Shown here piece after piece: positions 1,415-50,589 of a stretch of DNA of 64,000 nucleotides. Made by a program: the position numbers and the translations under genes. The first letter of the stretch is position 1. The number at the start of each line of letters is the position of its first letter. The DNA is from Patescibacteria group bacterium (lineage in GTDB: Bacteria; Patescibacteriota; Minisyncoccia; 2-02-FULL-40-12): positions 24,215 to 88,214 of the forward strand of contig JBBTXZ010000005.1 of the NCBI GenBank assembly GCA_038062015.1. The letters run 5' to 3'. The notes under the pieces were generated by a model, which was not told the DNA's origin, did no database searches, and saw only the letters and a program-made list of their open reading frames with translations.

Positions 1415-4400
1415 ATGAAGCCTGAATTCAGTTTACCGAGAACAGAAGAAGAAATCCAGAAGTTTTGGGAGGCCAACAAGGTTTTTGAAAAAACTCTCGA
1501 AAACCGCAAGCGAGGCAAAAAATTTGTTTTTTATGAAGGACCGCCCACGGCCAACGGCCTGCCTCACATCGGTCATTTTTTGACCCGGGCGTTTAAGGAT
1601 TTGTTCGTTCGCTATAAAACTATGCGCGGTTTTTTTGTCCCCCGCCGGGCCGGCTGGGATACTCATGGCCTGCCAGTTGAAATAGAAGTTGAAAAAGAGC
1701 TCGGATTGAAATCAAAAAAAGAAATTGAAAAATACGGCATTGCCAAGTTCAATAAAAAAGCAAGGGAATCGGTCTGGCGCTATAAAGGTGAATGGGAGAA
1801 ATTTTCAAAGCGAATCGGATTCTGGCTGGATTTTGACAACCCTTATATCACCTATGCCAATGATTATATTGAAACGCTTTGGCATATAGTTAAGCAGTTT
1901 GATAAGAAAAAATTCCTGTATCAAGGCCATAAAGTTCTGCCCTGGTGCCCGCGCTGCGGTACTACCCTTTCAAGCCATGAAGTCGCTTTAGGATATGAAA
2001 GTATAACCGAGGATTCGGTTTATGTGAAGTTTAAAGTTACTGGCTATGAAAGATCACCGATCTATTTACTTGCTTGGACAACTACGCCTTGGACATTGCC
2101 CGGCAATGTTGCTTTGGCCGTTGGTAAAGATATAACTTATGTTAAGGGTTTTGTGCCGAATAAAGAGGAAATAGAATTTTATATCTTTGCAAAAGACCAA
2201 CTTCCTAAAATTAATGAAATTTTAGGTGAGGATTTGAATATAGTTACAGAATTCCCGGGAGGCGAGCTGGTCGGTTGGGAATACGAGCCCTTATTTGAAG
2301 TCAAAAAACTAAAATCCAATAAATCGTATAAAATTTATCCGGCTGATTTTGTGAATACCGAAGAAGGCGCCGGCGTAGTCCATACCGCGGTGATGTATGG
2401 AGAAGATGATTATCAATTAGGGGAAAAAGTCGGCCTGCCTAAACATCATACAGTAGATAAAGAAGGAAAATTCACTGAAGACGTTCCTGAATTTGCCGGC
2501 AGATTCGTTAAAGATGCCGAAAAAGACGTCATTGCTTACTTAAAAAACAAAAATCTTTTATTTAAAGTTGAACCTTATACTCATGATTATCCTTTTTGTT
2601 GGAGATGCAAAACGCCACTACTCTATTATGCGACCGATTCTTGGTTCGTAAAAACCACAGCCGTAAAAAAACAATTAATCGCCAACAACAAAAAAATAAA
2701 CTGGATTCCGCCCTACATTAAAGAGGGTCGTTTCGGCCAGTGGCTTAAAGAAGTCAAAGACTGGGCTTTTTCGCGAGACAGATATTGGGGAACGCCTCTG
2801 CCAATTTGGCATTGCCAAATTGGCAGAAGTAAAAAGTTAAAAGTTAAAAGTAAAAACTCAGATAATAATGGCTGCGGGAATTATTTAGTTATCGGATCAT
2901 TGGAAGAATTAGAGAAGCACCGCTATCAAAAACCAAACAGATACCATATCATCCGCCATGCCGAAAGCACAAAAAATATTGAGGGCCGGGAAATAAACAG
3001 CGTCAAACTGGAAAGTGATAAATATGATCTGACCGAAAAAGGGATCAACCAGGCCAGAAAATTAGCCAAAGATTTGAAAAACGAAAAAATAGACTTGATT
3101 TTCAGTTCCCCATTTTTAAGAGCTGAAAGAACCGCTGGAATAATAGCTGAAGAGTTGGGGCTTAAAGAAAAAGTTGACCACCGGCTTAAAGAAATAGACC
3201 ACGGAAGCGTCTGTGAAGGCAAGGATTATTTTGCCTGCATACCGAAAGGCCAATACCCTAACAAAGATTTTAACACTAAGTTCGGGCCGGATGGAGAGAG
3301 TCGGAATGACGTCAGAAAAAGAGTTTTTGATTTTATCAAAGAAACCGAAAGCAAATACGAAGATAAAAATATTTTAATCGTTAGCCACGGCGATCCTTTG
3401 TGGTTGATGGAGGGAATTTCAAAAAATCTTGGCGAAGAAGAATTATTTTCGGCGAAAAAGAACCAGATTTTGGGCATAAAAGATAATGCATTTAAGCTCA
3501 TTAAATTTGGAGAAAAAAGAGTTTTGGTTTTCGGCAATTATCCGAGGGATGAATTTGGGAATCCGGATCTTCACCGGCCGTATATAGATGAAGTTTTACT
3601 TAAATGCCCAAATTGTGGCGGCGGGACGCTAAGCGTCCCTGATAGCCACGCTCAGCGTGGCGAAATGAAACGGGTTCCGGAGGTAATTGATGTCTGGTTT
3701 GATTCGGGAGCAATGCCGTTTGCAAGTCGGCCTGACTTCCCGGCTGATTTTATAACCGAAGGCGTAGATCAGACCCGGGGCTGGTTCTACACTCTTTTGG
3801 CTGTTTCAACTCTTTTAGGCAAGAGTAATCCTTACAAAAATGTTATTTCTTTGGGTCATGTTTTGGATAAAGACGGGAAAAAGATGTCCAAGTCGCTTGG
3901 CAACGTGATTAAGCCTGATTATGTTATTGATAAATTCGGAGCTGATATTTCAAGATGGTGGTTTTATGGGGTTAATCAGGCCGGCGAATCAAAAAGTTTT
4001 CGAGAGGAAGAATTGAAAGAAATAACTAACGGCTTTGTCAGGGTGATTATAAATTCTTTGAGGTTTTGGCAATTATATAAAGGAAGTTCTAAAGCTAAAA
4101 TAAATTTCCACGATCTTAAAAATAAAAACTCTTTGAACTTATTAGACAGATGGTTATTATCAAAATGGAACAGTTTAGTTGATTTGGTTACAAAATCTTT
4201 GGATAAATACGACGCTACAACAGCAAGCAGAGAAATTGAAAAATTCGTGATTGAAGATTTATCCAATTGGTGGATTAGAAGAAGCCGGGATAAATTCCAA
4301 GTGCAACAAGGCGCTTCTCAGGAAGATTTACTAAGATTTGTCCTTTTGGAATTGTCGAAGTTAATTGCTCCGTTTGCGCCGTTTTTGGCGGAGTATCTGT

Positions 4401-5040: not shown

Positions 5041-6738
5041 ATGATCCGTCGAATAATAATCGGTTTATTCATTCTTTTGATTTTCGGCACGGCTATTTTT
5101 TTGTTGTACCGGAGCGGATTCCGCGAAGGCAATGTCATTTTTAAAATAGAAGCTCCGGACCAAGTCTCATCCGGAGAAGAAATTGAATACCGGCTCATCA
5201 TTGAAAACAGAAACAATTTTGATTTGAATAACACCAAGCTTTCGTTGTCTTATCCCGGCGGAACGATTTGGTTCAATAAAGAAGGCCAGCCGTCCAATTC
5301 GGCGATCAATAATATTGATTCAGCCGGGTTTCAAAGACGCGAGAGAAAAGAATTTATTTTAAGGGCAATTTTGACCGGCGAAAAAGGCGAGATTAAAAAA
5401 ATAAAGGCCGAATTCACTTATAGCCCGAGCGGCATCAAGCCGGTTTTTCAAAAAAGCGCCGAAGCCGGAACAACCATTTCGAAAGTTTCCATCCCTCTAA
5501 CTTTGAGCGGGCCGCCCAATGTCCTGCCCGGCCAACTGGTTCAGATCTCCCTTGATTTAAGAAATGAAACCGAAGATGACTTTAAGGATTTAGAAGTAGT
5601 TTTTTCCTATCCCGACGGCTTCATTTTCAAAAAAGCTTCGTTTTTGCCGAACCAGAGCAATAACGTATTTAATTTGTCTTTGCTTAAATCAGGGGAAGGC
5701 GTGAGGATTACTATTGAAGGCAATGTTTCCGGTTTTGAAAAAGAAAGCAAAAGATTTATCGCCGCATTAAAAAGAAAAATAGACGGGAAATTCTTTGATT
5801 TTCAAAAAACCCAGGTTCTGCTTACTGTTTCGTCGCCTCTTTTAGCCCTTGATGTTTTAGTGAATGATTCAAAAGATTATATCGCTAAAGCCGGAGACAA
5901 TTTAAAATATAAGATTATATTTTCAAATAATTCCGACAATAACTTTTCAGCTTTGGAATTGTCCGTTAAGCTTGAAGGCCAGATGTTTGACTTGGTTAGT
6001 TTGAAGACCAGCGGCTTTTTTGATCAAAACTCCAGGACAATTTTATGGAACGCGGCCGCCGAGCCGGCACTGGCGAATTTAAGCCCCAATCAAAGGGGAG
6101 AAGTTTCTTTTGATATTAATCTCAAGCCGGATTTTCCAAAGGCTTTCGGCAAAAATTATTCTTTGAAGGCGGGTTCTTCAATCCAGACTTCGTCGGTGCC
6201 TCCGGATTTTAATTTGGATAAGATTACGGCTTTAGCCGAATTGATTACCAAAGTTAAATCAAAGACTGATTTCATCTCCAAAGCTTTTTATAATGATTTA
6301 GTGTTTTCAAACACGGGTCCGGTGCCGCCGCAAGTTGGCCAAAAGACCACTTATACGATACATTGGAAGATAGTCAACGAGGGTAATGACCTGACCAATG
6401 TCAGAATCGTTTCGTCGCTTTTACCAGGCATCAGTTGGGAGAATAAATTTAAAATTATGCCGATCCAGTCAGATTTGAATTATAGTCTTTCAACCGGACA
6501 GATTTCCTGGAGTGTTCCGACTGTGCCAGCCGGAACCGGAATTGTTTCCCCGGTTTTTGAAGCGGTTTTTCAGGTTGGTGTAACGCCAAGCGTGAATCAA
6601 TCCGGCCAGAATTTGGGGATTTTAAAAGAGGTGGTTTTTGAAGCGGTTGATAACTTCACCAAAGAGAAAATTAATTTAAGTCAGCCCGGGATTAATACCC
6701 AGTTCGGGGTGGATTCTCCGGGGACGGTGCAGCCATAA
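5041..6738 (+). CDS. Hypothetical membrane-anchored, beta-rich extracytoplasmic protein
   Basis: N-terminal TM helix (IIIGLFILLIFGTAIFLLY), then a long S/T/N-rich region with repetitive beta-strand-like segments. No recognisable catalytic motif. Confidence 0.5.
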   Translation: MIRRIIIGLFILLIFGTAIFLLYRSGFREGNVIFKIEAPDQVSSGEEIEYRLIIENRNNFDLNNTKLSLSYPGGTIWFNKEGQPSNSAINNIDSAGFQRRERKEFILRAILTGEKGEIKKIKAEFTYSPSGIKPVFQKSAEAGTTISKVSIPLTLSGPPNVLPGQLVQISLDLRNETEDDFKDLEVVFSYPDGFIFKKASFLPNQSNNVFNLSLLKSGEGVRITIEGNVSGFEKESKRFIAALKRKIDGKFFDFQKTQVLLTVSSPLLALDVLVNDSKDYIAKAGDNLKYKIIFSNNSDNNFSALELSVKLEGQMFDLVSLKTSGFFDQNSRTILWNAAAEPALANLSPNQRGEVSFDINLKPDFPKAFGKNYSLKAGSSIQTSSVPPDFNLDKITALAELITKVKSKTDFISKAFYNDLVFSNTGPVPPQVGQKTTYTIHWKIVNEGNDLTNVRIVSSLLPGISWENKFKIMPIQSDLNYSLSTGQISWSVPTVPAGTGIVSPVFEAVFQVGVTPSVNQSGQNLGILKEVVFEAVDNFTKEKINLSQPGINTQFGVDSPGTVQP

Positions 6739-6787
6739 GGTAGAATTTAGGACTTAGAAATTAGAACTTAGAACCAGAAATTAAGAA

Positions 6788-8098: not shown

Positions 8099-8102
8099 CC
8101 AA

Positions 8103-8134
8103 CCTACAAAAAATGATATATCATTTTTTGTAGG
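8103..8134. terminator. Perfect palindromic hairpin (cctacaaaaaatgatatatcattttttgtagg), intrinsic terminator
   Basis: Inverted repeat seen directly after the glyQS stop. Confidence 0.7.
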
Positions 8135-8158
8135 TTGAAGTTTGAAAACCCGAGATTT

Positions 8159-9436: not shown

Positions 9437-10482
9437 ACGGAGAACGCTCATTATTTGATATCTCAACCGCCGCTATTTTTAAATTCATAATAATCGTTTT
9501 GTTTTTTGTTTTGCTTTATCAGGTCCGGCAGGTCATTTTTATTCTTTTTTTTGCGATTATAATCGCTTCGGCGATGAATCCTTTTGGCCAGTGGCTTGAC
9601 CGCAAAAGGATTCCCCGCCTTCTGGGCATTTTGGTTTTATACCTGTCAATATTCCTTTTGGTGGTTTTCATTCTTACTTTGATTATTCCTTTTTTTTCAC
9701 AGGAAATCGGCCAGCTGACTGAAGACTTGCCGAGGTTTATCGCCCAAGTGACGGCTTCGCTTGAAGCTATTAAAAGCGAGTCAGGGACTTTTGATATCGT
9801 CAGTCAGCTTGTAGGAATTCTAGATAGTTTTTCCCAGTTTCTTCAGGAGTCAAGTCAATCTGCCGTTGGTTTGATTATAAACATTTTCGGAGGCATTATT
9901 TCGTTTTTCGGGGTGGTGATCATTTCATTTTATCTTTCGGTGATGAGAGGCGGAATTGACCAGTTTTTGAAGTCGGTTGTGCCGGATAAATACGAAAAAT
10001 ATATATTGGACTTATGGCACCGTTCTGAAAAAAATTTGGGCCGCTGGTTTCAGGTCCAGCTACTATTATCTTTGATCGTCGGCTTGATGACTTTTATCGG
10101 TCTGTCTTTGCTCGGCATAAAATTCGCTCTTGTCTTAGCTGGTTTGATTATGATTTTAGAATTAGTGCCTAATGTCGGTCCGGTCTTGGCCGCTATTCCG
10201 GCTGTGGGCTTAGCCTTTTTCCAGTCGCCTTCTTTGGGCTTCTGGACGATTGTTCTTTATATTGGAATCCAACAGATTGAAAATCAGGTTTTGACGCCGT
10301 TGATTATAGGCCGGACACTGGGTATTAATCCGGTGGTGGTGATTATTTCTTTGCTCGTCGGATTTAATTTAGCTGGGATTTTGGGGATGATTTTAGCGGT
10401 GCCGGTGGCCACTGTGATAGTGGAGTTGTTTAATGACATTGTTGAGAAAAAAGAAAAAGCCAGAGCCGCAGCTGGAGGCTAG
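9433..10482 (+). CDS. AI-2E family transporter (PerM/YhhT-like)
   Basis: Eight-TM pattern and conserved AI-2E family sequence character. Confidence 0.75.
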   Translation: MNGERSLFDISTAAIFKFIIIVLFFVLLYQVRQVIFILFFAIIIASAMNPFGQWLDRKRIPRLLGILVLYLSIFLLVVFILTLIIPFFSQEIGQLTEDLPRFIAQVTASLEAIKSESGTFDIVSQLVGILDSFSQFLQESSQSAVGLIINIFGGIISFFGVVIISFYLSVMRGGIDQFLKSVVPDKYEKYILDLWHRSEKNLGRWFQVQLLLSLIVGLMTFIGLSLLGIKFALVLAGLIMILELVPNVGPVLAAIPAVGLAFFQSPSLGFWTIVLYIGIQQIENQVLTPLIIGRTLGINPVVVIISLLVGFNLAGILGMILAVPVATVIVELFNDIVEKKEKARAAAGG

Positions 10483-10517
10483 AAGCTGGAGGCTGGAGGT
10501 TGGAAGCTGGAAATAGT

Positions 10518-11192
10518 ATGGCTATTCTTTATATTGTTGCCACGCCGATCGGCAATTTGAAAGATTTCACGACCCGTGCCATCGAAACCTTGAAAGAGGT
10601 TGATTTTATTTTAGCCGAAGATACTCGTGAAACCATTAAACTTTTAAACTTTTATACCATCAAGAAACCATTAATATCATACTTTCAGCATAGCCGACTT
10701 AGTAAGATTGAGTATATTTTGGATTTATTAAAACAGGGGAAAAGCCTGGCTTTGGTTTCTGATGCCGGCACGCCCGGAATAAATGATCCGGGCGGAAAAC
10801 TGGTTGCCGAGATTGTTAAAAGGTTTGGCGATTCCGTGAGAATAGTTCCTATCCCCGGGCCGAATGCGGCAATTACGGCATTAAGTATCTGTGGTTTAAA
10901 TGCTGACCGATTTATGTTTTTAGGCTATCTGCCTCATAAAAAGGGCCGACAAAAGTTTTTTACCGAAATCTTGAAATCACGATATCCCGTAATAATTTAT
11001 GAATCGCCCCATCGGATTTTAAAAACCCTGAATGAGCTAGACGGATTTGAAGAATTAAAAAACCGCGAAATTGTCGTCTGTCGCGAACTGACTAAAAAAT
11101 TCGAGACGATTTATCGCGGCACGATTTCCGAGGTTTTATTAAAAATTGAGAGAGGCATAGTAAAAGGGGAGTTTACTGTCGTTATAAAATGA
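10518..11192 (+). CDS. rsmI: 16S rRNA (cytidine1402-2'-O)-methyltransferase
   Basis: ILYIVATPIGNLKDFTTRAIETLKEVDFILAEDTR... tetrapyrrole-methylase fold typical of RsmI. ATG at 10518 preferred over the TTG at 10500. Confidence 0.85.
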   Translation: MAILYIVATPIGNLKDFTTRAIETLKEVDFILAEDTRETIKLLNFYTIKKPLISYFQHSRLSKIEYILDLLKQGKSLALVSDAGTPGINDPGGKLVAEIVKRFGDSVRIVPIPGPNAAITALSICGLNADRFMFLGYLPHKKGRQKFFTEILKSRYPVIIYESPHRILKTLNELDGFEELKNREIVVCRELTKKFETIYRGTISEVLLKIERGIVKGEFTVVIK

Positions 11193-11193
11193 T

Positions 11194-11229
11194 CCCTAAA
11201 TTTATGCTATAGCATAAATTTAGGGATAT
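11194..11229. promoter_or_regulatory. 36-bp perfect palindrome atccctaaatttatgctatagcataaatttagggat (terminator/operator) downstream of the PaaX-like gene
   Basis: Seen directly. A near-identical copy lies at 11800..11836 on the other side of the gene. Confidence 0.8.
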
Positions 11230-11783
11230 TATTCTAGATTGTATTTCTTTTTTAATTTAGTTTCACCGTCTATTTCGGTTATCTCGCCTAATTTTACAAA
11301 AGGTTTAACTTCAAAGAGTTTTAGTATAAACTCTACCTCGTTCTCTAATGGATAAGGATGAATCCAAACGCTTTTCTGGAACTGGTATAAGCCAAGCCCT
11401 TTTAGTTTTTCTCTTAATGCGTTAGCCCGACCTTTAAATTTATTAGGGATGTCAAACATAACAAAACGCCATTTGCCGTCCCATTTTTTCATTGGCCTGA
11501 TTTTTAATTTTTCAAGATCGTATCCAAGTATTTTCTTTTTTCCATTTTTGGATAATTCGACTTTCATACTGCCATCGGGATTTTCTTTTATAATGATAAG
11601 TTTTCGTTCTTTAAGAGCGTGGATTACTTTGCCGATTTTATTATTGTATTTTCTTTTGATGAATTTATTTTTATTTAAGGCACTGAAAATGTTTGGAGCC
11701 ATTGCTCCGGTGATAGTAATTAATCCAAGTAATCCAACTCCTATTAGTATTTTTTTGATCAGTTCTTTTCTATCCGGATTCAT
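11229..11783 (-). CDS. Membrane-anchored winged-helix + PaaX_C/Cas2-fold domain protein (putative autoregulator), paralog of 43635..44231
   Basis: N-terminal TM helix, a wHTH-like middle, and C-terminal WDGKWRFVMFDIP...RANALREKL..LG..QFQKSVW (Cas2/PaaX-C-like pattern). Bracketed by two near-identical palindromes. Confidence 0.5.
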   Translation of the reverse strand: MNPDRKELIKKILIGVGLLGLITITGAMAPNIFSALNKNKFIKRKYNNKIGKVIHALKERKLIIIKENPDGSMKVELSKNGKKKILGYDLEKLKIRPMKKWDGKWRFVMFDIPNKFKGRANALREKLKGLGLYQFQKSVWIHPYPLENEVEFILKLFEVKPFVKLGEITEIDGETKLKKKYNLE

Positions 11784-11799
11784 TGTTTGAATTATATCT

Positions 11800-11836
11800 C
11801 CATCCCTAAAATTATGCTATAGCATAATTTTAGGGA
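11800..11836. promoter_or_regulatory. Palindrome ccatccctaaaattatgctatagcataattttagggatgg upstream of the PaaX-like gene start (candidate operator)
   Basis: Seen directly, ~17 bp upstream of the start codon at 11783. Confidence 0.7.
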
Positions 11837-11942
11837 TGGAGAGGAACGGGGAATAATAATACGGGGAATAATAATTATGAGGATAATTATTTGATTATCA
11901 GCGACTTTATTTTTGAGTATATAGTTGATATGATTTTGTATT

Positions 11943-13439
11943 ATGGCCGGAAAATTTTCTATTACAACTGCGATACCGTATGTAAATGCCAAAGGGCATG
12001 TGGGTTTTGCCATGGAGTTGATTCAAGCTGATGTGCTTGCCCGATTTGAGCGGCTTAGAGGAAATAATGTTTTTTTCTTAACCGGAACAGATGAAAATGC
12101 TCTCAAAAATGTGCAGGCGGCGGAAAAAGCGAATAAACCAATTAGAGAATTTATCGATGAACACGCTAAAAGTTTCATTGAGCTTGCTAAATTGCTCAAT
12201 ATATCAAATGACGATTTTATAAGAACTACAGAAGGAAGGCACATAAAGGGGGCCCAGAAACTTTGGCGGGCCTGTGAAGCGGCCGGCGATATTTATAAGA
12301 AAAAATATAAAGGTTTGTATTGCGTCGGATGCGAGGAGTTTAAAACAGAAAAAGATTTAATAGACGGATTATGCCCCGAGCATAATACTAAACTCGAAGA
12401 AATCGAAGAAGAAAACTACTTTTTCAGATTGTCTAAGTATCAGGATAAAGTCGAGAAACTTATTTTTTCAGATGAGTTGCGAATTGTGCCGATAACCCGG
12501 AAGAACGAGGCCTTAAGTTTTATCCGTCAAGGATTGCAAGATTTCAGTATTTCTCGCAGCCGGGAACGAGCTAAAAATTGGGGGATTCCTGTTCCCGGGG
12601 ACGACAGTCAGATAATTTACGTGTGGTATGACGCGTTAACCTGGTTTATAAACGCTCTCGGGTATTCTGATAACGAAGAAAAGTTTAAATTGTGGTGGAG
12701 TGATCGCAACATAGATCTTATCGGCAAGGGGATAAATAGATTTCATACGATTTACTGGCCGGTGATGTTAATTTCCGCCGGTCTTCTTCCGCCCAAGGAA
12801 ATATATATTCACGGATACATAACCATTGGCGGCGAAAAAATATCCAAATCCCTCGGCAACACAATTGACCCAGTTGATTTAGTCGGAAAATACGGAGTAG
12901 AAATTGTTCGTTATTTTCTTTTGCGGGAAATTCCGTCAGACGGCGACGGTGATTTTTCTGTCAAAAAATTAGAGGCCCGCCACAATGCGGATTTAGCTAA
13001 TAATTTAGGGAATTTGGTTTCGCGGGTTGTCGCTTTGATAGAAAAGTTTTTCAGCGGCAGTTTTAACTACTCCCGAAGATTTGTTTTAAAAGAAGTTGAC
13101 GATAAAGTGATTGATATATGGAAAAAGTACAATGAAAACATAAATAATTTTAAGCTCCACATTGCTTTAGAAAATATTTTTTCTTTGGTTGATTTCGCTA
13201 ATTTATATATTGATGAGCATAAACCCTGGTCTTTGGGCGATAATCCGGAGCATCTGAATGAAGTTATGACAAATCTGATTGTGATTTTACTTAATGTGGC
13301 TTGGTTTTTAAAGCCGTTTCTGCCTGAAACTTCAAACAGGATTTTCGGTATTTTAGGCGCGGATAAAGATGGTAAATCGTGGGAAGAAAAACCGTTTCAG
13401 GTCAAACCGGAAATTTTATTTCCGAAAATAGAGCAATGA
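11943..13439 (+). CDS. metG: Methionyl-tRNA synthetase (short form, no C-terminal tRNA-binding domain)
   Basis: N-terminal ITTAIPYVNAKGHVG region, zinc knuckle CVGCEEF...CPEH, and KISKS (KMSKS) motif. Confidence 0.9.
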   Translation: MAGKFSITTAIPYVNAKGHVGFAMELIQADVLARFERLRGNNVFFLTGTDENALKNVQAAEKANKPIREFIDEHAKSFIELAKLLNISNDDFIRTTEGRHIKGAQKLWRACEAAGDIYKKKYKGLYCVGCEEFKTEKDLIDGLCPEHNTKLEEIEEENYFFRLSKYQDKVEKLIFSDELRIVPITRKNEALSFIRQGLQDFSISRSRERAKNWGIPVPGDDSQIIYVWYDALTWFINALGYSDNEEKFKLWWSDRNIDLIGKGINRFHTIYWPVMLISAGLLPPKEIYIHGYITIGGEKISKSLGNTIDPVDLVGKYGVEIVRYFLLREIPSDGDGDFSVKKLEARHNADLANNLGNLVSRVVALIEKFFSGSFNYSRRFVLKEVDDKVIDIWKKYNENINNFKLHIALENIFSLVDFANLYIDEHKPWSLGDNPEHLNEVMTNLIVILLNVAWFLKPFLPETSNRIFGILGADKDGKSWEEKPFQVKPEILFPKIEQ

Positions 13440-13565: not shown

Positions 13566-15986
13566 ATGAAATATAATCCAAACAAAATAGAACGAAAATG
13601 GCAACGTTACTGGGAGAATAAAAAACTTTATCAAACTAAAGATAAAGTCAAAGGCAAGAAAAATTTTTATCATTTGGTGATGTTTCCTTATACTTCAGGC
13701 GATCTTCATATGGGACATTGGTATAATTATGCGCCATCAGACGTATATGCCCGTTTCAAGCGGATGCAGGGATTAAATGTAATGGCGCCGATCGGTTTTG
13801 ACGCTTTCGGGCTTCCGGCTGAAAATGCGGCCATCCAAAGAAATATCAATCCGGCTGATTGGACCAGACAAAATATCTCGTATATGACCAAGCAATTAAA
13901 AAGCATGGGCGCAATTTTTGACTGGTCGAGAAAAGTAGAAACAATTGACCCCGAATACTATAAATGGACCCAGTGGATATTTTTGAAGTTTTATGAAAAG
14001 GGTTTGGCTTATCGAGCTAAAACAAAAGTAAATTGGTGTCCTAAGGATAAAACTGTTTTGGCTAACGAGCAGGTCGTGGATAATTGCTGCGAAAGGTGTG
14101 GGACTCAGGTGGTTCAGAAAGAATTAGTTCAGTGGATGTTTAAAATCACAAAATATGCCGATCAGCTTATTGATGATTTGGAAAAACTTGATTGGCCTGA
14201 AATAACTAAAACCGCCCAGAAGAATTGGATAGGAAGATCGCAGGGAGCAGTTATAAAATTTCAAGTTGAAAATTCAAAGAATTATGTAGATGTTTTTACG
14301 ACTAGGCCTGATACTATTTTCGGCGCTACTTTTATGGTTTTAGCGCCGGAGCATGAATTGGTTAAGAAAATTACTAAAGATCAATTTTTAGGCCAAGTAA
14401 ATAATTATCTTGAGAATGCAAAAAAGAAAACAGAGCTTGAAAGATTGGCTGAAGTAAAAGAAAAGACAGGGGTTTTTACTGGTGCTTATGCTTTCAATCC
14501 GGCAACCAAAGAGAAAATTCCGATTTGGATTTCTGATTTTGTTTTGCCTCATTACGGTACTGGCGCGATTATGGCTGTTCCGGCCCATGATGAAAGGGAT
14601 TTTGAGTTTGCAAAGAAGTTTAATTTATCCATTAGGGAAGTTATTGGCGGCGGCGATATTTTAAAAGAAGCGTACGAAGGCGAAGGTAAATTGATTAATT
14701 CGGGGAAGTTTTCCGGAATGGATTCTGAAAAAGCCAAGTGGGAAATTACAGAATTTGTCGGCGGAAAGAAAATGATTTCTTATCGGCTGCACGACTGGAT
14801 AATTTCTCGTCAGCGGTATTGGGGGGCGCCGATCCCAATGGTTTATTGCCAGAAATGTGATTGGCAGCCAGTTTCAGAAAAAGATTTGCCGGTTTTACTG
14901 CCTAAAATAAGAGATTACAAACCCCCTGGAACTGGAGAGCCGCCTTTAGTTAAAGCTAAAGATTGGCTCAATGTAAAATGTCCAAGATGTTTCGGTCAAG
15001 CTCGGCGTGAGACGGATACCATGGATGCTTTCGTTGATTCGGCTTGGTATTTTCTGCGATATAGCGATCCAAAAAACAAAAAACAATTTGCTTCAAAAGA
15101 CAAATTGGAGTCTTGGCTTCCGGTAGATATGTATATCGGCGGCCAGGAGCACGCCACTAAACACCTGCTTTATGCCAGATTTATAACCAAAGTTTTGAAT
15201 GACTCTGGTTATTTGAGTTTTGACGAGCCGTTTAAGACTATGAGGCATCAAGGTCTGATTTTGGGCCTTGACGGGAATAAAATGTCTAAATCAAGAGGCA
15301 ATATAGTTGATCCCGATGAAATGGTTAAGAAATTTGGTTCAGATTCTGTTCGAATGTATCTTTGTTTTATGGGGCCTTATGAAAACGGCGGACCTTGGGA
15401 TCCGAAAGCGATTGTTGGAGTATTCAGATTCCTAAACCGAGTTTGGAATCTGATAAAACCCAAATTCCAAAATCCAAATGACAAATCAATTCCAAATTCC
15501 AAAATCCAAAACAAAGAATTAGATAAAGTTTTCAATAAAGCGATTAAAAAAGTTGGCGAAGATATAGAAAACTTAAGATTTAACACAGCGGTGAGCGAAT
15601 TGATGAAGTTACTTAACGAAATAGAAGATTTTATTAATAAAGGTTTTACGTTTCAAGTTTCAAGCTTCAAGGTCTTTTTGAAATTGCTGGCGCCATTCGC
15701 GCCGCATTTAGCTGAAGAGCTTTGGCATCAGATTGGGAACAAAAAATCAATCCATTTAGAAAAGTGGCCGGAGTATAACCCGAAACTTATTGAAGATGAG
15801 ACAGTTGATTTGGTGATTCAAGTTAATGGCCGGACTCGGGATGTAATCAAAGCCCCGCATGATTTAACCGAGCCGCAAGCCCGCGAATTGGCTCTAGCTT
15901 CGGAAAAAATCAAAAAATACGTTTCCGGAAAAGAAATCAAAAAATTTATTTACATCCCCAACAAAATCGCTAATATAGTAATTTAA
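13566..15986 (+). CDS. leuS: Leucyl-tRNA synthetase
   Basis: HMGH (HIGH) motif and KMSKS. Start placed at MKYNPNKIERKWQ (the track ORF begins upstream inside the insertion). Carries an in-frame 'ccaaaatccaaa' repeat at ~15459..15511. Confidence 0.9.
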   Translation: MKYNPNKIERKWQRYWENKKLYQTKDKVKGKKNFYHLVMFPYTSGDLHMGHWYNYAPSDVYARFKRMQGLNVMAPIGFDAFGLPAENAAIQRNINPADWTRQNISYMTKQLKSMGAIFDWSRKVETIDPEYYKWTQWIFLKFYEKGLAYRAKTKVNWCPKDKTVLANEQVVDNCCERCGTQVVQKELVQWMFKITKYADQLIDDLEKLDWPEITKTAQKNWIGRSQGAVIKFQVENSKNYVDVFTTRPDTIFGATFMVLAPEHELVKKITKDQFLGQVNNYLENAKKKTELERLAEVKEKTGVFTGAYAFNPATKEKIPIWISDFVLPHYGTGAIMAVPAHDERDFEFAKKFNLSIREVIGGGDILKEAYEGEGKLINSGKFSGMDSEKAKWEITEFVGGKKMISYRLHDWIISRQRYWGAPIPMVYCQKCDWQPVSEKDLPVLLPKIRDYKPPGTGEPPLVKAKDWLNVKCPRCFGQARRETDTMDAFVDSAWYFLRYSDPKNKKQFASKDKLESWLPVDMYIGGQEHATKHLLYARFITKVLNDSGYLSFDEPFKTMRHQGLILGLDGNKMSKSRGNIVDPDEMVKKFGSDSVRMYLCFMGPYENGGPWDPKAIVGVFRFLNRVWNLIKPKFQNPNDKSIPNSKIQNKELDKVFNKAIKKVGEDIENLRFNTAVSELMKLLNEIEDFINKGFTFQVSSFKVFLKLLAPFAPHLAEELWHQIGNKKSIHLEKWPEYNPKLIEDETVDLVIQVNGRTRDVIKAPHDLTEPQARELALASEKIKKYVSGKEIKKFIYIPNKIANIVI

Positions 15987-22728: not shown

Positions 22729-23622
22729 ATGTATCCAAATCTGCGAATAATTATTTTAGGGGTATTAACTCTATTTTTGGTTTTGACCTTTGTGGTTGAA
22801 TTCCGTGGCGAATACGGACTTAAAGTCTATTTTTTTGATGTCGGCCAGGGCGATTCAATTTTTATTGAAACAGAAGAAAAGAAACAAATTCTGATTGACG
22901 GCGGGCCGGATAACAAAGTGGTTCAAAAATTATCAGAAGCAATGCCATTTTGGGACCGAACCATAGACTTGGTTATTCTGACTCATCCGGACAAGGACCA
23001 TATCTTAGGTTTAATCGAAGTCTTGAAAAGATACCGAGTTAAGGGAATCATTGAAACTGGAATCGAATGCGGGAAAGCGGAATGTGTAGTCTGGAAAGAG
23101 TTGAAAGAAAAAGAAAAAGCGCCGGTTATTTTCGTGAAACTCGGCGACTCGTTAATACTTAACGAAAATACTAAAATTTTAATTTTAAATCCTTTCGCCG
23201 ATATGGCCGGAGAAAAAATTTCAAAAGCCAATAATTCTTCTATCGTGGCTAAATTAATCTACGATGGATACAGCATTTTATTGACCGGCGATATTGAGAA
23301 ACATATTGAAGAAAAGCTGGTTCTGGCCGGAGTAGACATTGATTCTGATTATCTTAAAATTCCGCATCATGGTTCTAAGACCTCAACCACCGAAGAATTT
23401 TTGGAAAAAATTTCCCCGCTTTCGGCTTTTATCTCTCTCGGCAAGAATAATTCTTACGGCCATCCGCATGATGAAGTTACCGGCCGTCTTGAAAAAAGAA
23501 ATATAAAATATTATCGTACTGATGAACTGGGAACTATTTTATTGAGTTGCAAGTTTAATGAACCGTGTTCAGTAAAATTCCAAATTCCAAATTCCAAAAT
23601 CCAAATAACAAATGACAAATAA
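22729..23622 (+). CDS. MBL-fold metallo-hydrolase (the ComEC C-terminal beta-lactamase domain as a separate gene)
   Basis: VYFFDVGQGDSIFIE and LVILTHPDKDHILG motifs. The 3' end runs into a 'ccaaaatccaaa' repeat. Confidence 0.8.
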   Translation: MYPNLRIIILGVLTLFLVLTFVVEFRGEYGLKVYFFDVGQGDSIFIETEEKKQILIDGGPDNKVVQKLSEAMPFWDRTIDLVILTHPDKDHILGLIEVLKRYRVKGIIETGIECGKAECVVWKELKEKEKAPVIFVKLGDSLILNENTKILILNPFADMAGEKISKANNSSIVAKLIYDGYSILLTGDIEKHIEEKLVLAGVDIDSDYLKIPHHGSKTSTTEEFLEKISPLSAFISLGKNNSYGHPHDEVTGRLEKRNIKYYRTDELGTILLSCKFNEPCSVKFQIPNSKIQITNDK

Positions 23623-23653
23623 AATCCAAAATCCAAATTCCAAAATAAATAAG

Positions 23654-24259
23654 ATGAAGAAATTACTAGCCGACCCCAAACATCCAAGGGAAGAAAAGAC
23701 CCTTGTTTTAATCAAGCCAGATGCCGTGAAAAGGGGGTTGGTCGGCGAAATAATCAAACGTTTTGAAAGCCGGGGACTTAAGATTATTGGTCTGAAAATG
23801 GTTCACGGCGCGCCAAAAGATTTTGACAAGCATTATCCTAAAAGCAAGGGATGGATTGCTAATTTAGGCAAAAGAACTATAGAAACCTACAAAAAATACA
23901 GTTACAGCTTGAAAAACGATTTTGGCACCGATGATCCGTTTAGAATCGGCAAAATTTTCCGTAACTGGCTGATTGATTTTATGGCTTCCGGGCCGGTGGT
24001 CAAGATTTTGATTGAAGGGGCTCATGCCATTGATGTGGTCAGAAAAATTGTCGGCGACACCCAGCCTCATTTTGCCCTGACCGGAACTATCCGCGGCGAT
24101 TTTAGTGTTGACTCGGCCGGCTCGGCGAATAAGTCAAAGCGGGCCGTTCATAATTTAGTTCACGCTTCGGGCGATAAAAATGAAGTCCGAAACGAAATAA
24201 TACTCTGGTTTAATCCCGAAGAAATCTGCGACTACAAGAGAGTGGAAGAGTTGATTTAA
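23654..24259 (+). CDS. ndk: Nucleoside-diphosphate kinase (with an internal insertion)
   Basis: TLVLIKPDAVKRGLVGEII... and active-site NLVHASGD. ATG at 23654. Confidence 0.8.
   Translation: MKKLLADPKHPREEKTLVLIKPDAVKRGLVGEIIKRFESRGLKIIGLKMVHGAPKDFDKHYPKSKGWIANLGKRTIETYKKYSYSLKNDFGTDDPFRIGKIFRNWLIDFMASGPVVKILIEGAHAIDVVRKIVGDTQPHFALTGTIRGDFSVDSAGSANKSKRAVHNLVHASGDKNEVRNEIILWFNPEEICDYKRVEELI
24203..24259. repeat. 56-bp direct repeat, copy 1 (the ndk 3' end)
   Basis: tctggtttaatcccgaagaaatctgcgactacaagagagtggaagagttgatttaa is repeated at 24998..25053. Confidence 0.9.
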
Positions 24260-24264
24260 TTGTA

Positions 24265-24675
24265 TTATTGCTGGATTTGAGTTATTGTTGGAGTTTTAAG
24301 TCCGGGTATTTTTTTTGATACATCTTCTTTAGCTAGAATTTTTGTTGCTAATTTAATAATTAAACTTAAATCAGGGCCGAATTTTGTGCCAATTTCGTCT
24401 AGGATTATCATTTCGTTAAGCAAATCTTCAAATTCTTCACTCAACTGGTCTCTAATCTTTTTATCTAAGGCATATTCAATTTTAATAAAACAATTACAGC
24501 CATCTTTTAGAGGAGTTTTTCCTTTCTGAAGAGCATCAATCACATCTAAAACCAGAAGAGCTGTTTCTCTTTCTATACCGGCAGTGTCTTTGCCTTCTTT
24601 TATCAAATTTAAAATCAACCGAAGCCGTTTTTGGATAATTTGATTATGTAGATTGTTTTTTTTCATTTTTACCAT
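24265..24675 (-). CDS. Hypothetical protein (second gene of the inserted two-gene cassette)
   Basis: ORF 136 aa, no recognisable motif. Its start overlaps the upstream ORF's end (operon-like). Confidence 0.4.
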   Translation of the reverse strand: MVKMKKNNLHNQIIQKRLRLILNLIKEGKDTAGIERETALLVLDVIDALQKGKTPLKDGCNCFIKIEYALDKKIRDQLSEEFEDLLNEMIILDEIGTKFGPDLSLIIKLATKILAKEDVSKKIPGLKTPTITQIQQ

Positions 24676-24683
24676 GATAATAA

Positions 24684-24959
24684 CTACTTTAAAATTATTT
24701 TTATGTCTTTGTGAATTACCCTGCCGGCTTTAACCACTACATGCCATACTTCAACTAACTTATTATTCTTAAATATTTTTACCATTTGCGATATGCCTTT
24801 ATCTTTTCCGAGAATTCCTCTTCTGACAATCTTAACAGAATAATTATCTATATTAACATAATCGATTTTTCTTAGCAATTTTGTGCCTCGGAAAGCGGTG
24901 ATTGATAATCGAGTTACAAGTTCTAAAATTTTAATAGTCCCTGAAGCAGGCATTGGCAT
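24684..24959 (-). CDS. Hypothetical small protein (first gene of the inserted cassette; possible toxin-antitoxin or defence pair)
   Basis: ORF 91 aa, basic, no recognisable motif. Confidence 0.4.
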   Translation of the reverse strand: MPMPASGTIKILELVTRLSITAFRGTKLLRKIDYVNIDNYSVKIVRRGILGKDKGISQMVKIFKNNKLVEVWHVVVKAGRVIHKDIKIILK

Positions 24960-24997
24960 AAGTAAATTATACGAAGTATTAAGAGATGGTCAAAGAT

Positions 24998-25053
24998 TCT
25001 GGTTTAATCCCGAAGAAATCTGCGACTACAAGAGAGTGGAAGAGTTGATTTAA
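24998..25053. repeat. 56-bp direct repeat, copy 2 (duplicate of the ndk 3' end), followed by the original ndk terminator
   Basis: Identical to 24203..24259. Followed by aaaaaccgctttaagcggttttttgg. Confidence 0.9.
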
Positions 25054-25084: not shown

Positions 25085-25091
25085 TTTTAGT

Positions 25092-25161
25092 CGGGCTGCC
25101 GGGATTTGCACCCGGGCTAAATCGACCCCATCGACTCGTGCTGCTGCTACACCACAGCCCG
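25092..25161 (-). tRNA. tRNA-Pro(GGG)-like cloverleaf with non-canonical D-loop and T-loop (could be a tRNA-like element)
   Basis: Manual fold on the minus strand: acceptor CGGGCUG/CAGCCCG (7 bp), D-stem GUGU/GCAC, anticodon stem AGUCG/CGAUU with loop AUGGGGU (U33, GGG, G37), T-arm CCGGG-UGCAAAU-CCCGG. Lacks G18G19 and has G55. Begins 6 nt after the rpmB stop. Confidence 0.45.
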
Positions 25162-25167: not shown

Positions 25168-25350
25168 TTATCTCGTTTCTTTATGCAGCGTCTTAATGCA
25201 GTCGGTGCAGATTTTCATTCTCTTGCCGTTAACTACGGCCCATTGGAGATTGGGTTTTTGGCGATGGGTGCTTGTTGGATTATAATGGCCGCGCAATAAC
25301 TTGCGTTTGGTAACTTTCATTGATTTTTTTCCGCATCTCGGACAACGCAT
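25168..25350 (-). CDS. rpmB: 50S ribosomal protein L28 (zinc-ribbon type)
   Basis: MRCPRCGKKSMKVTKRKLLRGHYNPTS...PNLQWAVVNGKRMKICTDCIK, the L28 pattern with four Cys. Confidence 0.8.
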   Translation of the reverse strand: MRCPRCGKKSMKVTKRKLLRGHYNPTSTHRQKPNLQWAVVNGKRMKICTDCIKTLHKETR

Positions 25351-25434
25351 ACAATTAGAATTTAGTAATTAGTACTTAGAATTAAAAAACTAAGATCGTT
25401 TACAGATTACCTTAAAAATGATAACTTTTCAAGA

Positions 25435-26632: not shown

Positions 26633-27100
26633 ATGAGACAAGGACAAGCACCTAAAAGACCAAACGAACCAGACATTAAATACCAAAGCGCTCTAGTCGC
26701 TAAATTTATTAATTACATAATGAGAAGCGGCCGCAAGACGATTGCCCGCCGGATTGTTTATGATTCTCTGGAGAGCGCCGAAAAAAAATTGGGCAAAAGC
26801 CCTTTGGAAATTTTAGAGCAAGTCATAAAAAATGCCGGCCCGGATCAGGAATTAAGAAGCCGCCGGATCGGCGGGGCCAATTATCAGATTCCTTATCCGG
26901 TTAAGCAAGACCGGAGAATTACTTTAGCTTTACGTTGGATAATAGATGCGGCTAAAGCGAAAAAAGGGAAGCCGATGGATGATAAACTAACCCAGGAACT
27001 GATTGATGCTTTTAATAATACCGGCTTGGCAGTTAAGAAAAAGATAGATACTCACAGAATGGCGGATGCGAATAAAGCTTTTGCTCACTTTGCTTGGTGA
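26633..27100 (+). CDS. rpsG: 30S ribosomal protein S7
   Basis: Conserved S7 sequence pattern and gene order rpsL-rpsG-fusA. Confidence 0.92.
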   Translation: MRQGQAPKRPNEPDIKYQSALVAKFINYIMRSGRKTIARRIVYDSLESAEKKLGKSPLEILEQVIKNAGPDQELRSRRIGGANYQIPYPVKQDRRITLALRWIIDAAKAKKGKPMDDKLTQELIDAFNNTGLAVKKKIDTHRMADANKAFAHFAW

Positions 27101-27305
27101 CAGAGAGAATATAGAACACAGAATATAGAATATAGGATATAGGATATAGAATAAGAATGACCAATTCCTTTAAGGATTTGATAGTTTGGCAAAAGTCTAA
27201 ACAACTAGCCGTAGAAATATATAAACTAATTTAGAAGAAATAATGAAAATATTAAACAACTTTGTTAAGAAGTTATCTTAGTTTTAATTCTATATTCTAA
27301 ATTCT
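27101..27305. repeat. ~200-bp spacer bounded by inverted 'tagaat'-type repeat arrays (MITE-like element)
   Basis: Left end gaatatagaatataggatataggatatagaat. Right end ttctatattctaaattctat (inverse). A compact version lies at 39181..39258. Confidence 0.5.
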
Positions 27306-29509: not shown

Positions 29510-29860
29510 TTGCTTGCCAAGCTCGCAAATAAATTCCGCATGATAAACGAAGAATTGAAAAATTTAGTTTCCAGTTTAGGGACTTTGGTAATCGTTGAAA
29601 ATAATCAGCCGAAATTTATAGTCATGACCTATGATAAATTTAATTCAGTTATCCACAAAAGCATTGACAATTCTAGTAATTTTAATAAAGATAGTAATGA
29701 GACGCTAAGCGTTTCTGGTTATCACGCTCAGCGTGATGAGGAGATAGTTAATCGGTTGAATGAAGAAATATTTGCTTTAAAGGAGCAGGTAGTTGAAAAA
29801 GAAAAAGAATTTAGTAATTTGTCTGAGCGCAGCGATAGCGAGCACAGCGACAAATTCTAA
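29510..29860 (+). CDS. Small hypothetical protein (Phd/YefM-like N-terminal segment + coiled coil) inserted between fusA and tuf
   Basis: ORF 116 aa. Contains an in-frame double-hairpin element (gacgctaagcgtt...cacgctcagcgtg at 29702..29736). Flanked by repeat-family hairpins at 29441..29509 and 29861..29950. Confidence 0.45.
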
Positions 29861-34149: not shown

Positions 34150-34226
34150 CATCTACAAAATTACAAATCATTTACGAATATACAAATTTGTATATTTGTA
34201 GGGATTTGTAAATTCGTAGATATTTA

Positions 34227-36216: not shown

Positions 36217-36292
36217 TACTACGAAGTACGAATCAGTCCGAATGTACGAATTCGTATATTCGTAAAGATTCGTAAATTCGTAGTTTAACATT

Positions 36293-36921: not shown

Positions 36922-36997
36922 ATCTACGAATTTACCAATTCATTACAAATATACAAATATTTGTATATTTGTAGAGATTTGTAATTTTGTAGATAAA

Positions 36998-38572: not shown

Positions 38573-38619
38573 CGGAGAGAAATAGAATTTAGTAAATAGA
38601 ACTTAGAATATTTAAATTT

Positions 38620-39183: not shown

Positions 39184-39258
39184 AGATAGAACATAGAATA
39201 TAGAATATAGAATGTAGAATACGATCCTATGTTCTATATTCTAAATTCTACATTCTAA

Positions 39259-40521: not shown

Positions 40522-40567
40522 CCAATTTCTTCTCTGAATTTTTTAGACAAATAATCTTTAGAGAGTA
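40522..40567 (+). repeat. ~46-bp intergenic repeat (ccaatttcttctctgaattttttagacaaataatc...agagag), copy 1 of 3
   Basis: Also at 42833..42879 (inverted) and 63838..63883 (direct). Confidence 0.85.
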
Positions 40568-43572: not shown

Positions 43573-43589
43573 TCTAAATTAAACTTATA

Positions 43590-43625
43590 TTACAATTGTA
43601 ATATAAGTTTAATTTTTGATTTAAT
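43590..43625. promoter_or_regulatory. Perfect palindrome aaacttatattacaattgtaatataagttt upstream of the PaaX-like paralog 2 (candidate operator)
   Basis: Seen directly, ~10 bp before the ATG at 43635. Confidence 0.75.
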
Positions 43626-43634
43626 GGAATTTTA

Positions 43635-44231: not shown

Positions 44232-44262
44232 ATATATTACAATTGTAATATATCTTTAATTT
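44232..44262. promoter_or_regulatory. Palindrome agatatattacaattgtaatatatct downstream of paralog 2 (terminator / second operator copy)
   Basis: Seen directly. Same tatattacaattgtaatata core as the upstream palindrome. Confidence 0.7.
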
Positions 44263-50060: not shown

Positions 50061-50111
50061 ACCCAGCTTACAAATAATGATATATCATAAAAAGTAAGCT
50101 GGAGGAAAATT

Positions 50112-50549: not shown

Positions 50550-50550
50550 A

Positions 50551-50580: not shown

Positions 50581-50589
50581 TGTTCCTTG

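Follow-up and report, generated by a model that had tools for sequence, protein, structure and literature searches.

Insertion sequences of the IS200/IS605 group measure about 0.7 kb, carry one small gene and have a hairpin-forming palindrome near each end, without the usual terminal inverted repeats; they leave no visible target duplication, their ends lie at unequal distances outside the hairpins, and the upstream hairpin of IS200 insulates the gene from outside transcription. The regulator PaaX binds a palindromic operator, and its Cas2-like domain dimerises, as does that of Cas2 in the clustered regularly interspaced short palindromic repeats (CRISPR) systems. The REP-associated tyrosine transposase (RAYT) gene is a single-copy, mostly vertically inherited gene with its own family of repetitive extragenic palindromic (REP) sequences on both sides (PMC3116915, PMC5581495), and REPs are described at high copy number (PMC3733652). 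Here we analyse a stretch of 64,000 nucleotides from a Patescibacteria group bacterium (GenBank assembly GCA_038062015.1, contig JBBTXZ010000005.1, positions 24,215 to 88,214 of the forward strand; hereafter the window), which holds two genes, A and B, each lying between two near-identical perfect palindromes. We see about an even chance that A and B represent self-contained "palindrome-gene-palindrome" modules of Patescibacteria, whose product, a dimeric protein with a winged helix-turn-helix (wHTH) segment and a Cas2-like domain, binds the palindromes that bound its own mobile module.

Palindromes on both sides of the gene

Gene A (11229-11783, minus strand; 184 aa; NCBI AAB584_01455) and gene B (43635-44231, plus strand; 198 aa; AAB584_01680) have the same architecture and are the sole members of their family in a six-frame search of the window. 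The initial annotation had regarded them as paralogues, and this is borne out by 34% identity over 179 aa (BLASTP, E = 4e-31) and by a shared match to the Pfam domain PaaX_M. It had also named their neighbours correctly: the domains found around A are those of a TP_methylase (RsmI-type) gene and of metG (MetRS), and those around B belong to adk (adenylate kinase) and to a Peptidase_M24 gene (methionine aminopeptidase, map). The G+C content is 0.32 in A and 0.29 in B, compared with 0.40 in the window as a whole.

All four palindromes that had been proposed around the two genes are real, near-identical in pairs, perfect and loopless, with lengths of 26-46 nt; their sequences had been given correctly, but their coordinates were 2-15 nt off. 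Downstream of A, the 36-nt palindrome ATCCCTAAATTTATGCTATAGCATAAATTTAGGGAT (11192-11227) begins on the last base of the rsmI stop codon and ends 1 nt short of the A stop codon. Upstream of A, the 46-nt palindrome TCTCCATCCCTAAAATTATGCTATAGCATAATTTTAGGGATGGAGA (11797-11842; the 36-mer quoted earlier is 11802-11837) abuts a TATAAT hexamer (11791-11796, minus strand) that stands 7 nt before the ATG of A, a spacing that suggests a leaderless mRNA. Within the 36 nt that the two copies have in common, the sole difference is one T/A swap mirrored on both arms. Upstream of B, the 40-nt palindrome AAATTAAACTTATATTACAATTGTAATATAAGTTTAATTT (43576-43615; earlier quoted as the 30-mer 43581-43610) starts 3 nt past the adk stop codon and ends 19 nt ahead of the ATG of B. 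Downstream of B, the 26-nt palindrome AGATATATTACAATTGTAATATATCT (44230-44255) overlaps the TAG stop codon; its left arm includes the final two bases of the TAG, its right arm is altered in a complementary way at arm positions 11-12, and its direct-repeat similarity with the upstream copy runs on to 44262. Perfect palindromes with arms of at least 11 nt number 11 in the window, compared with 0-1 in each of ten dinucleotide shuffles, where no arm exceeded 11 nt, and four of the six longest flank A or B. Throughout the window the A core, ATGCTATAGCAT, is confined to the two flanks of A and exact matches to the B core, TATTACAATTGTAATA, to the two flanks of B.

Two further features of the A locus may be recorded here. 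In the divergent promoter region, a 15-mer (ACGGGGAATAATAAT) that lies between the upstream palindrome and the start codon of metG is perfectly duplicated in tandem (11846-11875). The order of rsmI, a small opposite-strand DNA-binding gene and metG (10500-13439) is reminiscent of yabC(rsmI)-abrB-metS of Bacillus subtilis, a resemblance that may be coincidence.

The palindrome bracket is a trait of the family. For 76 homologues from different genomes with usable flanks, the 200 nt before the start codon were compared with the 120 nt after the stop codon, and 797 other open reading frames (ORFs) of the same loci served as controls. An exact common sequence of 12 nt or more was present in both flanks of 48 of the 76 family genes and of 15 of the 797 controls, and one of 20 nt or more in 28 of the 76 and 3 of the 797. 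This common sequence is mostly the centre of a long palindrome of up to 66 nt, and it is specific to the locus, the cores including GCTATAGC, GCATATGC, CGATCG, GCGGCCGC, GCAATTGC and GCTTAAGC. Typically the upstream copy ends 0-70 nt before the ATG and the downstream copy begins at -8 to +45 nt relative to the stop codon, a few lying up to 96 nt away. Half-sites are kept within clades (ATTACA in that of B, ATG[C/A]TA in that of A), and the residues of the recognition helix may vary with the type of core, "LERAI" going with GCTATAGC and "L.KEI" with ACGATCGT, a suggestive pairing that is confounded by phylogeny.

An arrangement of this kind might be expected of an ordinary autoregulated PaaX-like repressor with an upstream operator, a downstream copy acting as second operator (through looping) and/or as bidirectional terminator, and solo copies forming a small regulon; its modules would spread passively by generic recombination and horizontal transfer, and the copies would be alike through shared specificity and local gene conversion. 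We regard this as rather unlikely. In its favour, the protein combines a wHTH with a dimerisation domain as PaaX does, the distance from the upstream copy to the ATG is 0-70 nt, with the copy of A abutting the TATAAT box, and half-sites are conserved within clades; moreover, a regulator gene between palindromic operator repeats has reportedly been found in one case, that of a CsoR/RcnR-family regulator. On the other side, palindromes of 26-66 nt go far beyond the expected need of one wHTH dimer. The downstream copy occurs in 17 of 35 cases with a convergent next gene and in 12 of 36 with a co-directional one; it is as frequent at convergent junctions, where there is no promoter to regulate, as at co-directional ones, and is not simply the operator of the next promoter. 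We therefore rejected the downstream palindrome as operator of the next gene.

Symmetry of the palindromes bears on this question too. At 29 loci the two copies were compared position by position, a difference being called mirrored when both arms had changed and each copy was still self-complementary. Between copies, 466 arm positions were the same; among those that differed, 34 were mirrored, 22 were confined to a single arm and 5 fell into other classes. That variable positions are still mirrored (34 against 22 on a single arm) speaks for a constraint of pairing or copying rather than base readout by a protein, and hence against the repressor. Furthermore, 62 of 71 flanking palindromes (87%) are symmetric through the centre, compared with 22 of 80 other palindromes of the same loci (28%), and several of these 22 look like further elements of the same kind. 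Since a hairpin in RNA or single-stranded DNA needs no self-complementary loop, symmetry through the centre favours a two-fold site in duplex DNA or a copying mechanism.

The same observations allow us to weigh a function at the RNA level, in which the palindromes would form transcript hairpins (an insulator or stabiliser at the 5' end, a terminator at the 3' end, or RNase III sites that free the mRNA from operons) and might be bound or cut by the Cas2/VapD-like domain as an RNase; some Cas2 and VapD proteins have been reported as RNases. Perfect stems of 13-33 bp right after stop codons and mirrored compensatory changes, which are the classic signature of a stem, agree with such a function, as does the downstream copy of A, the sole one of the four flagged in the terminator scan (as bidirectional terminator-like). 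No other copy passes the scan for intrinsic terminator features (a G+C-rich stem, an unpaired loop and a T-run), and none does so at B; three of these four palindromes are without a T-run, consensus scans for promoters and terminators stay at background level except at the downstream copy of A, and an Rfam scan of the window gave no match at the palindromes. The symmetry through the would-be loop in 87% of flanking palindromes is not what a hairpin would call for. Mismatches on the sense strand (13 of the G:T type, 9 of the A:C type) have no clear strand bias and are uninformative as an RNA test; there is no excess of the G:U-compatible kind that RNA hairpins might have left. Nor would transcript hairpins explain why one gene has the same sequence in two of them and, in a relative, in a solo copy 3 kb off. 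The upstream copy of A, lying between divergent genes and directly upstream of a probable -10 box for a leaderless mRNA, is probably not transcribed with A. Taken together, we hold an RNA-level function to be very unlikely.

Insertion, duplication and concerted change of the modules

The palindromes bound the unit that was inserted at gene B. The block of palindrome, gene and palindrome (43573-44262, plus strand; 690 bp) exactly fills the space from the adk stop codon to the GTG start codon of map. In 12 relatives found by a metagenome scan with the Adk of the window (Adk 70-86% identical, SecY up to 95%), adk and map overlap (ATGA) or are 2-80 nt apart, with one exception that has a spacer of about 170-190 nt, and between the two genes there is neither a family gene nor a B-type palindrome. 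The empty junctions indicate that the B block is a lineage-specific insertion that included both palindromes. They agree with the earlier statement that adk and map are normally adjacent, as the genes abut or overlap in these relatives. Target-site duplication of a pre-existing palindrome at B, or site-specific integration at one, was considered and rejected, since the empty sites have no palindrome. In a more distant genome (L110; Adk 53% identical), another family member, 31% identical to B and with CGATCG-core repeats of its own, occupies the adk|map junction, and at locus L012 a family gene stands behind map, with adk and map side by side. The adk-map spacer of one relative (L102, about 3650-3720) contains an array with a 7-nt period.

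At gene A the comparison of junctions gave a different result. The seven A-type genes examined (64-85% identical, from distinct assemblies) all have rsmI and metG on either side as far as the contigs extend to them, and gene A is not a recent insertion. Thus the proposal that both genes had been inserted into conserved housekeeping pairs stands for B, where adk and map abut or overlap in relatives uninterrupted by any family gene, and is not supported, as a recent event, for A, whose position between rsmI and metG is shared by the relatives. With a ratio of nonsynonymous to synonymous substitution (dN/dS) of 0.08-0.12 against its orthologues, gene A is under purifying selection and is therefore functional. 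Strong purifying selection and a stable position both speak for the repressor reading. Likewise, a widespread member of the family, P0073, has the same context on 20 of the 20 contigs read, and its recent transposition was rejected on this ground.

A near-identical pair of whole blocks was seen once among the 80 loci. Two contigs of one Moraniibacteriota metagenome-assembled genome (MAG), L064 and L066, share a 784-bp block that is 97% identical and extends from about 15 nt left of the upstream palindrome to 4 nt right of the downstream palindrome. The flanks do not align, the neighbours being a sigma factor and a TrmB-like gene in L064 and a reverse transcriptase and dnaE in L066, and no target duplication is visible. 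In L066 (5605-6723) the duplicate is pseudogenised and directly follows the reverse-transcriptase (RVT_1) gene, which extends with its 3' end into the upstream palindrome. The block that was duplicated might represent a transcript. Other copies are also found. Two contigs of a Gribaldobacteria MAG (L030 and L050) share an older copy, 78% identical over 599 bp with unrelated flanks, and a third paralogue of the window's MAG, C (AAB584_01115), 65% identical to B, lies on another contig between uvrD and ksgA. Another member of the B clade is located after dnaE. B, C and L090, all of this clade, stand in three different gene contexts with the common core ATTACA-NN-TGTAAT, of which the central dinucleotide differs (B, ATTACAATTGTAAT; C, ATTACACGTGTAAT). 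The modules of the family measure 0.68-0.78 kb overall and contain a single small gene. That the block boundaries coincide with the palindromes in both the duplication and the insertion counts against a repressor whose modules spread passively.

These features would suit an autonomous transposable element of a new type, in which the wHTH-Cas2-like protein acts as a nuclease or recombinase that recognises the terminal palindromes, in duplex form or extruded into hairpins, and mobilises both the module and the solo copies. Its logic would be that of TnpA in IS200/IS605 and of RAYT with REP, with an unrelated catalytic fold. One small gene with palindromes at both ends in 0.68-0.78 kb, a 97% duplicate in an unrelated context with unequal ends (about 15 and 4 nt) and no visible target duplication, the exact adk|map insertion together with an independent insertion of another member at the same junction, and a G+C content that is low relative to the neighbours all argue for such an element. 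Against it stands a very low copy number, with members mostly single and vertically inherited; and perfect palindromes, unlike the ends of IS200/IS605, give no cue as to strand or orientation. We consider the idea unlikely, and return to the protein's part in it below.

Within genomes, the copies change together. Every genome with an A orthologue possesses a palindrome version peculiar to it, which is found in both flanking copies. The versions of close relatives differ gradually, L122 having a hybrid core (ATGATATAGCAT), and in L124 the palindrome is imperfect, with the same asymmetry in both copies, as in direct repeats. The paired, genome-specific versions and the shared asymmetry of L124 point to copying or conversion between the copies, rather than to independent selection for one specificity.

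Palindromes of the same type also occur away from family genes. Two solo palindromes of the A type are present in the window, one between a class II aminoacyl-tRNA synthetase gene (GlyRS-type) and an M16 peptidase gene (CAACCTACAAAAAATGATATATCATTTTTTGTAGGTTG, 8100-8137) and one between a DHH/DHHA1 gene and rnhA (CCAGCTTACAAATAATGATATATCATAAAAAGTAAGCTGG, 50063-50102; 40 nt, imperfect), the right end of which overlaps the GGAGG ahead of rnhA. Both have the core ATGATATATCAT and no adjoining family gene, and they are closer to the palindrome of the A orthologue of L001 than to the A palindromes of the window; a cognate gene for this type was not found in the part of the MAG that was searched. The palindromes had been called locus-specific at the outset. 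This applies insofar as the A and B cores differ and are not generic terminators, but in view of the related solo copies here and in relatives they do not belong to the genes exclusively.

At the GlyRS|M16 junction of L121, a solo palindrome (13610-13647) is identical in 38 of 38 positions to the copy downstream of the A orthologue of that locus, 3 kb away. In L094 and L123 the GlyRS and M16 genes overlap and are free of palindromes, and this presence or absence of solo copies at an orthologous junction among relatives is a further point for a transposable element. The identical solo copy of L121 and the direct-repeat asymmetry of L124 indicate copying and not convergence, which counts against the repressor. 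Together with the mirrored changes within a genome, they make co-evolution of an operator insufficient on its own. The initial annotation had offered an autoregulator with its operator or a mobile cassette as alternatives; the cassette is supported for B by the empty adk|map sites and, elsewhere in the family, by the 97% block in two contexts, but the two alternatives are not exclusive.

Further solo copies stand in L036, L054 and L019. Their density is low, about 1 per 50-100 kb in these partial genomes, and a search for exact cores found about 6 distant solo copies in 692 kb. A high-copy REP-like repeat was accordingly rejected, extra copies being present in 4 of 37 loci and in about 6 places in 692 kb, and the solo palindromes were retained as a low-copy class. 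A near-identical 34-nt loopless palindrome, GGTCTGGCTACGCCAGATCTGGCGTAGCCAGACC, was observed twice in L017 (15089-15122 and 15504-15537) and once in L028 (5610-5643), a different genome; separate genomes may have solo palindromes of this class in common.

The encoded protein and its possible action

Both proteins match Pfam PF20803, PaaX_M, the "PaaX central Cas2-like domain" (E = 4e-19 for A and 3.8e-17 for B, well above the gathering score), and hence are not unrelated on profile search; they have no other significant Pfam domain, PF07848 and PaaX_C (PF08223) being without a match at E <= 1. The initial annotation had described a C-terminal domain like Cas2 or PaaX-C. The Cas2-like part of this description fits the PaaX_M match; PF08223 gave no match, and both proteins end directly after the PaaX_M domain. 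In A an N-terminal hydrophobic helix is followed by a wHTH-like segment at about residues 40-90 and by PaaX_M at residues 99-174. The first two elements had been proposed before as well. A hydrophobic N-terminal window consistent with the suggested transmembrane anchor is present in both proteins, the best 19-aa Kyte-Doolittle window scoring 2.0 for A and 1.6 for B; a value of 1.6 or higher is attained by 59 of the 87 family members. For the wHTH, the family profile gives a weak match to the recognition helix and wing of a MarR protein, ahead of the Cas2-like domain.

In an AlphaFold2 model built from 20 family sequences, residues 1-46 are of low confidence, a helix and a beta-hairpin "wing" are predicted at 48-89 (predicted local distance difference test score, pLDDT, about 55-70), and a ferredoxin-like domain is predicted at 100-184 (pLDDT about 90). 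Foldseek gave weak matches in the PDB, none with E <= 0.001; the best was E. coli PaaX (8a39; E = 2e-3), and numerous Cas2 structures ranked next. A phmmer search of PDB sequences with the C-terminal domain alone found no match. In the alignment of the 20 sequences, WDGK, FD-P, Q-S, PY and E149 are invariant, as are D111, Y144 and K104, and FDIP and QKSVW are invariant or nearly so. We take FDIP and QKSVW to resemble the Cas2 motifs YDI, from the beta1 strand that ends in the catalytic Asp, and Q-x-S-V-F, and D111 presumably corresponds to that catalytic Asp.

By sequence, A and B fail the membership tests for PaaX proper and for Cas2. They score 28.2 and 22.8 bits against the PaaX equivalog model TIGR02277, which has a cut-off of 264.55, and 21.6 and 19.6 bits against the Cas2 model TIGR01573, with a cut-off of 24.5; the PADLOC Cas2 models match at E = 5e-5 to 1e-2. 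The family itself is large. It comprises 1051 clusters (50% identity) at E <= 1e-30 and 3484 at E <= 1e-10, and GTDB species genomes contain at least 591 relatives; of the 80 loci listed, the majority belong to MAGs of the candidate phyla radiation (CPR). Its members are annotated as "hypothetical" or "PaaX", and NCBI names some of them Cas2. The neighbours that we read are rsmI/metG, adk/map, uvrD/ksgA, dnaE and hpf/secA, with no paa genes among them. The labels "CRISPR-associated endonuclease Cas2" and "phenylacetic acid degradation regulator" on genes of this family are probably misleading.

The likeness to Cas2 raises the thought of a degenerate or proto-CRISPR unit, with two palindromic direct repeats of 26-46 bp around a "spacer", beside or around a Cas2 homologue. 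Repeats of this length and kind are within the CRISPR range, and the weak similarity to Cas2 models (21.6 bits for a cut-off of 24.5 in TIGR01573; E about 5e-5 in PADLOC) and the NCBI naming of some members are in its favour. However, there are two repeats only, the "spacer" is a coding gene of 570-610 bp, and the repeats differ between paralogues of one genome. No CRISPR array is present among the 20 largest direct-repeat families shown for the window, and no search was aimed at cas1 or other cas genes. Such a unit appears to us extremely improbable.

As regards a transposable element, the invariance of D111, Y144, K104 and E149 is compatible with catalysis, but profile searches (in Pfam, at E <= 1) found no signature of HUH/Y1 (Y1_Tnp), DDE, serine or tyrosine recombinases in A or B. 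Moreover, the nuclease activity of Cas2 is dispensable in CRISPR adaptation and the same domain is non-catalytic in PaaX, both of which weaken the case for a Cas2-like transposase. A stronger version of our own reading, in which the wHTH-Cas2-like protein itself nicks, copies or moves the DNA bounded by its cognate palindrome and would define a mobile element class specific to the CPR, run by a free-living Cas2 relative without Cas1, is in our judgement improbable.

In the reading that we prefer, that of a dimeric protein bound to the palindromes of its own mobile module, the steps might be as follows. The protein, of about 180-220 aa, may be anchored in the membrane by the hydrophobic N-terminal segment that most members have; its winged-helix segment would bind DNA and its Cas2-like domain would serve for dimerisation. 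The symmetric dimer would bind the module-specific palindrome at both ends of the gene. At the promoter-proximal copy, which in A abuts the -10 box, binding could lead to autorepression, and the stop-proximal copy could act as a boundary, roadblock or terminator. What enters gene junctions and is duplicated elsewhere is the palindrome-bounded module as a whole, and the few scattered solo palindromes of the same type would be kept like the flanking copies by copying or conversion. Overall, the relationship would be like that of RAYT genes and REP sequences, or like an IS200-type element with hairpins at both ends. In this account the association of gene and palindromes, the insertion and duplication of the module, the joint change of the copies, the symmetry of the sites and the selection on the gene are observed, whereas binding, autoregulation, membrane anchoring and the agent of movement or copying are inferred.

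Several observations weigh against this reading. The mirrored changes could come from hairpin-templated correction, which would act in any long palindrome and be free of function. The hydrophobic N-terminus is weak or absent in about one third of the members and is of low confidence in the model. The stable context of P0073 and the position of A, kept over long divergence, argue that the modules are not active insertion sequences, and no family member was found in viral contigs, which also counts against an autonomous transposable element. The duplicate in L066 has a premature stop codon, and the binning of a MAG does not prove a single-cell origin for L064 and L066. Extra copies that are near-identical are present within 10 kb on either side in 4 of 37 loci only, so that the copy number is low, and the core of the solo palindromes in the window (ATGATATATCAT) differs from the A core (ATGCTATAGCAT).

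Other repeats of the window and relation to known systems

The window contains repeats of other kinds. Three intergenic spacers of the ribosomal-protein cluster (34150-34225, 36220-36290 and 36925-36995) carry inverted heptamer-like arrays (TACGAAT/TACAAAT, then ATTCGTA/ATTTGTA) that form long imperfect palindromes; they are mutually related (repeat families D2 and D20), and their TACAAA/TTTGTA motif recurs within the B-type core and on the outer arms of the solo palindromes. Many short arrays, repeating every 7 nt with the motifs CCAAAAT, ATAGAAT, TTAGAAT and CTGGAGG, are found at 6731-6767, 10472-10512, 15455-15518, 23575-23652, 25346-25382, 27097-27160, 38573-38609 and 39186-39221, and give the impression of being a second type of filler for spacers in this lineage. 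The final 61 bp of ndk are duplicated (24199-24259 and 24993-25053, 97% identical) around a 733-bp insert, which has a 136-aa minus-strand ORF without a Pfam match and possibly a second small ORF, and lies beside a 39-nt palindrome and a tRNA-Pro gene (25090-25161); the region (24199-25053) has the appearance of a further small insertion, accompanied by a long duplication. A 35-nt unit made up of two short palindromes (GACGCTAAGCGTC ... CACGCTCAGCGTG) is present in four places (3625-3659, 29701-29735, 59045-59079 and 60627-60661), by coordinates within long ORFs. Direct repeats that are 98% identical pair 267-434 with 825-992 (168 nt) and 40522-40566 with 63838-63882 (45 nt). An RNase P RNA gene (class A, 113 bits) was identified on the minus strand at 50583-50992, and between it and rnhA stands a hairpin with a loop (50550-50581) that is probably a bidirectional terminator.

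The genomes of Patescibacteria are tiny, and few regulators or mobile elements can be recognised in them; this family numbers at least 1000 clusters (50% identity), with several paralogues in a genome. It also offers a testable genomic rule, namely that a gene has its own long perfect palindrome at both ends and that the whole unit is inserted and duplicated. If the protein only binds its sites, the family would be a catalogue of hundreds of orthogonal pairs of protein and DNA site, and a first handle on regulation in these uncultured bacteria. If it copies or moves them, it would represent a new palindrome-associated element run by a Cas2 homologue on repeats outside CRISPR, and a catalytic protein would bear on the origin of the repeat-handling side of CRISPR adaptation. 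In the literature that we searched there was no paper linking PaaX with Cas2 or with the CPR or Patescibacteria, and none mentioning genes between identical or perfect palindromes.

Among known systems, PaaX resembles these proteins in the Cas2-like PF20803 domain after a winged helix and in being the best, though weak, structural match (8a39). It differs in length (about 300 aa, compared with about 190 here), and the present proteins have no PaaX_C, no PF07848 and no paa neighbours and possess a hydrophobic N-terminal segment. With Cas2 they share the ferredoxin-like fold, as far as weak Foldseek matches tell, and a gene tied to palindromic direct repeats of 26-46 bp; in contrast to Cas2, they score below the family cut-off, have an extra wHTH segment and a hydrophobic N-terminus, and are encoded by a gene that the repeats themselves bracket. 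IS200/IS605 elements are similar in that palindromes at both ends delimit the mobile unit, as in the L064/L066 block and in the B block at adk|map. They are dissimilar in that the present modules have no Y1_Tnp and their palindromes are perfect and identical on both strands, and in that none of the genomes examined has many identical copies and many members are stable and syntenic.

The likeness to REP and RAYT extends to a palindrome type for each paralogue, to extra copies in short intergenic spacers just past stop codons, and to copies that are alike within a genome and different between related genomes. This stands beside clear differences. The protein is of the wHTH and Cas2-like (PaaX_M) kind and not a HUH/Y1 transposase; the palindromes are perfect, loopless and 26-66 nt long; in the partial genomes covered there are a few copies per 100 kb, much fewer than described for REPs; and the gene-containing module itself is inserted and duplicated and, among the loci seen, is confined to Patescibacteria. 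Palindrome-associated gene modules are known as such; modules that encode an unrelated, Cas2-like protein appear to be new, and they would be categorically new if that protein proved to be catalytic.

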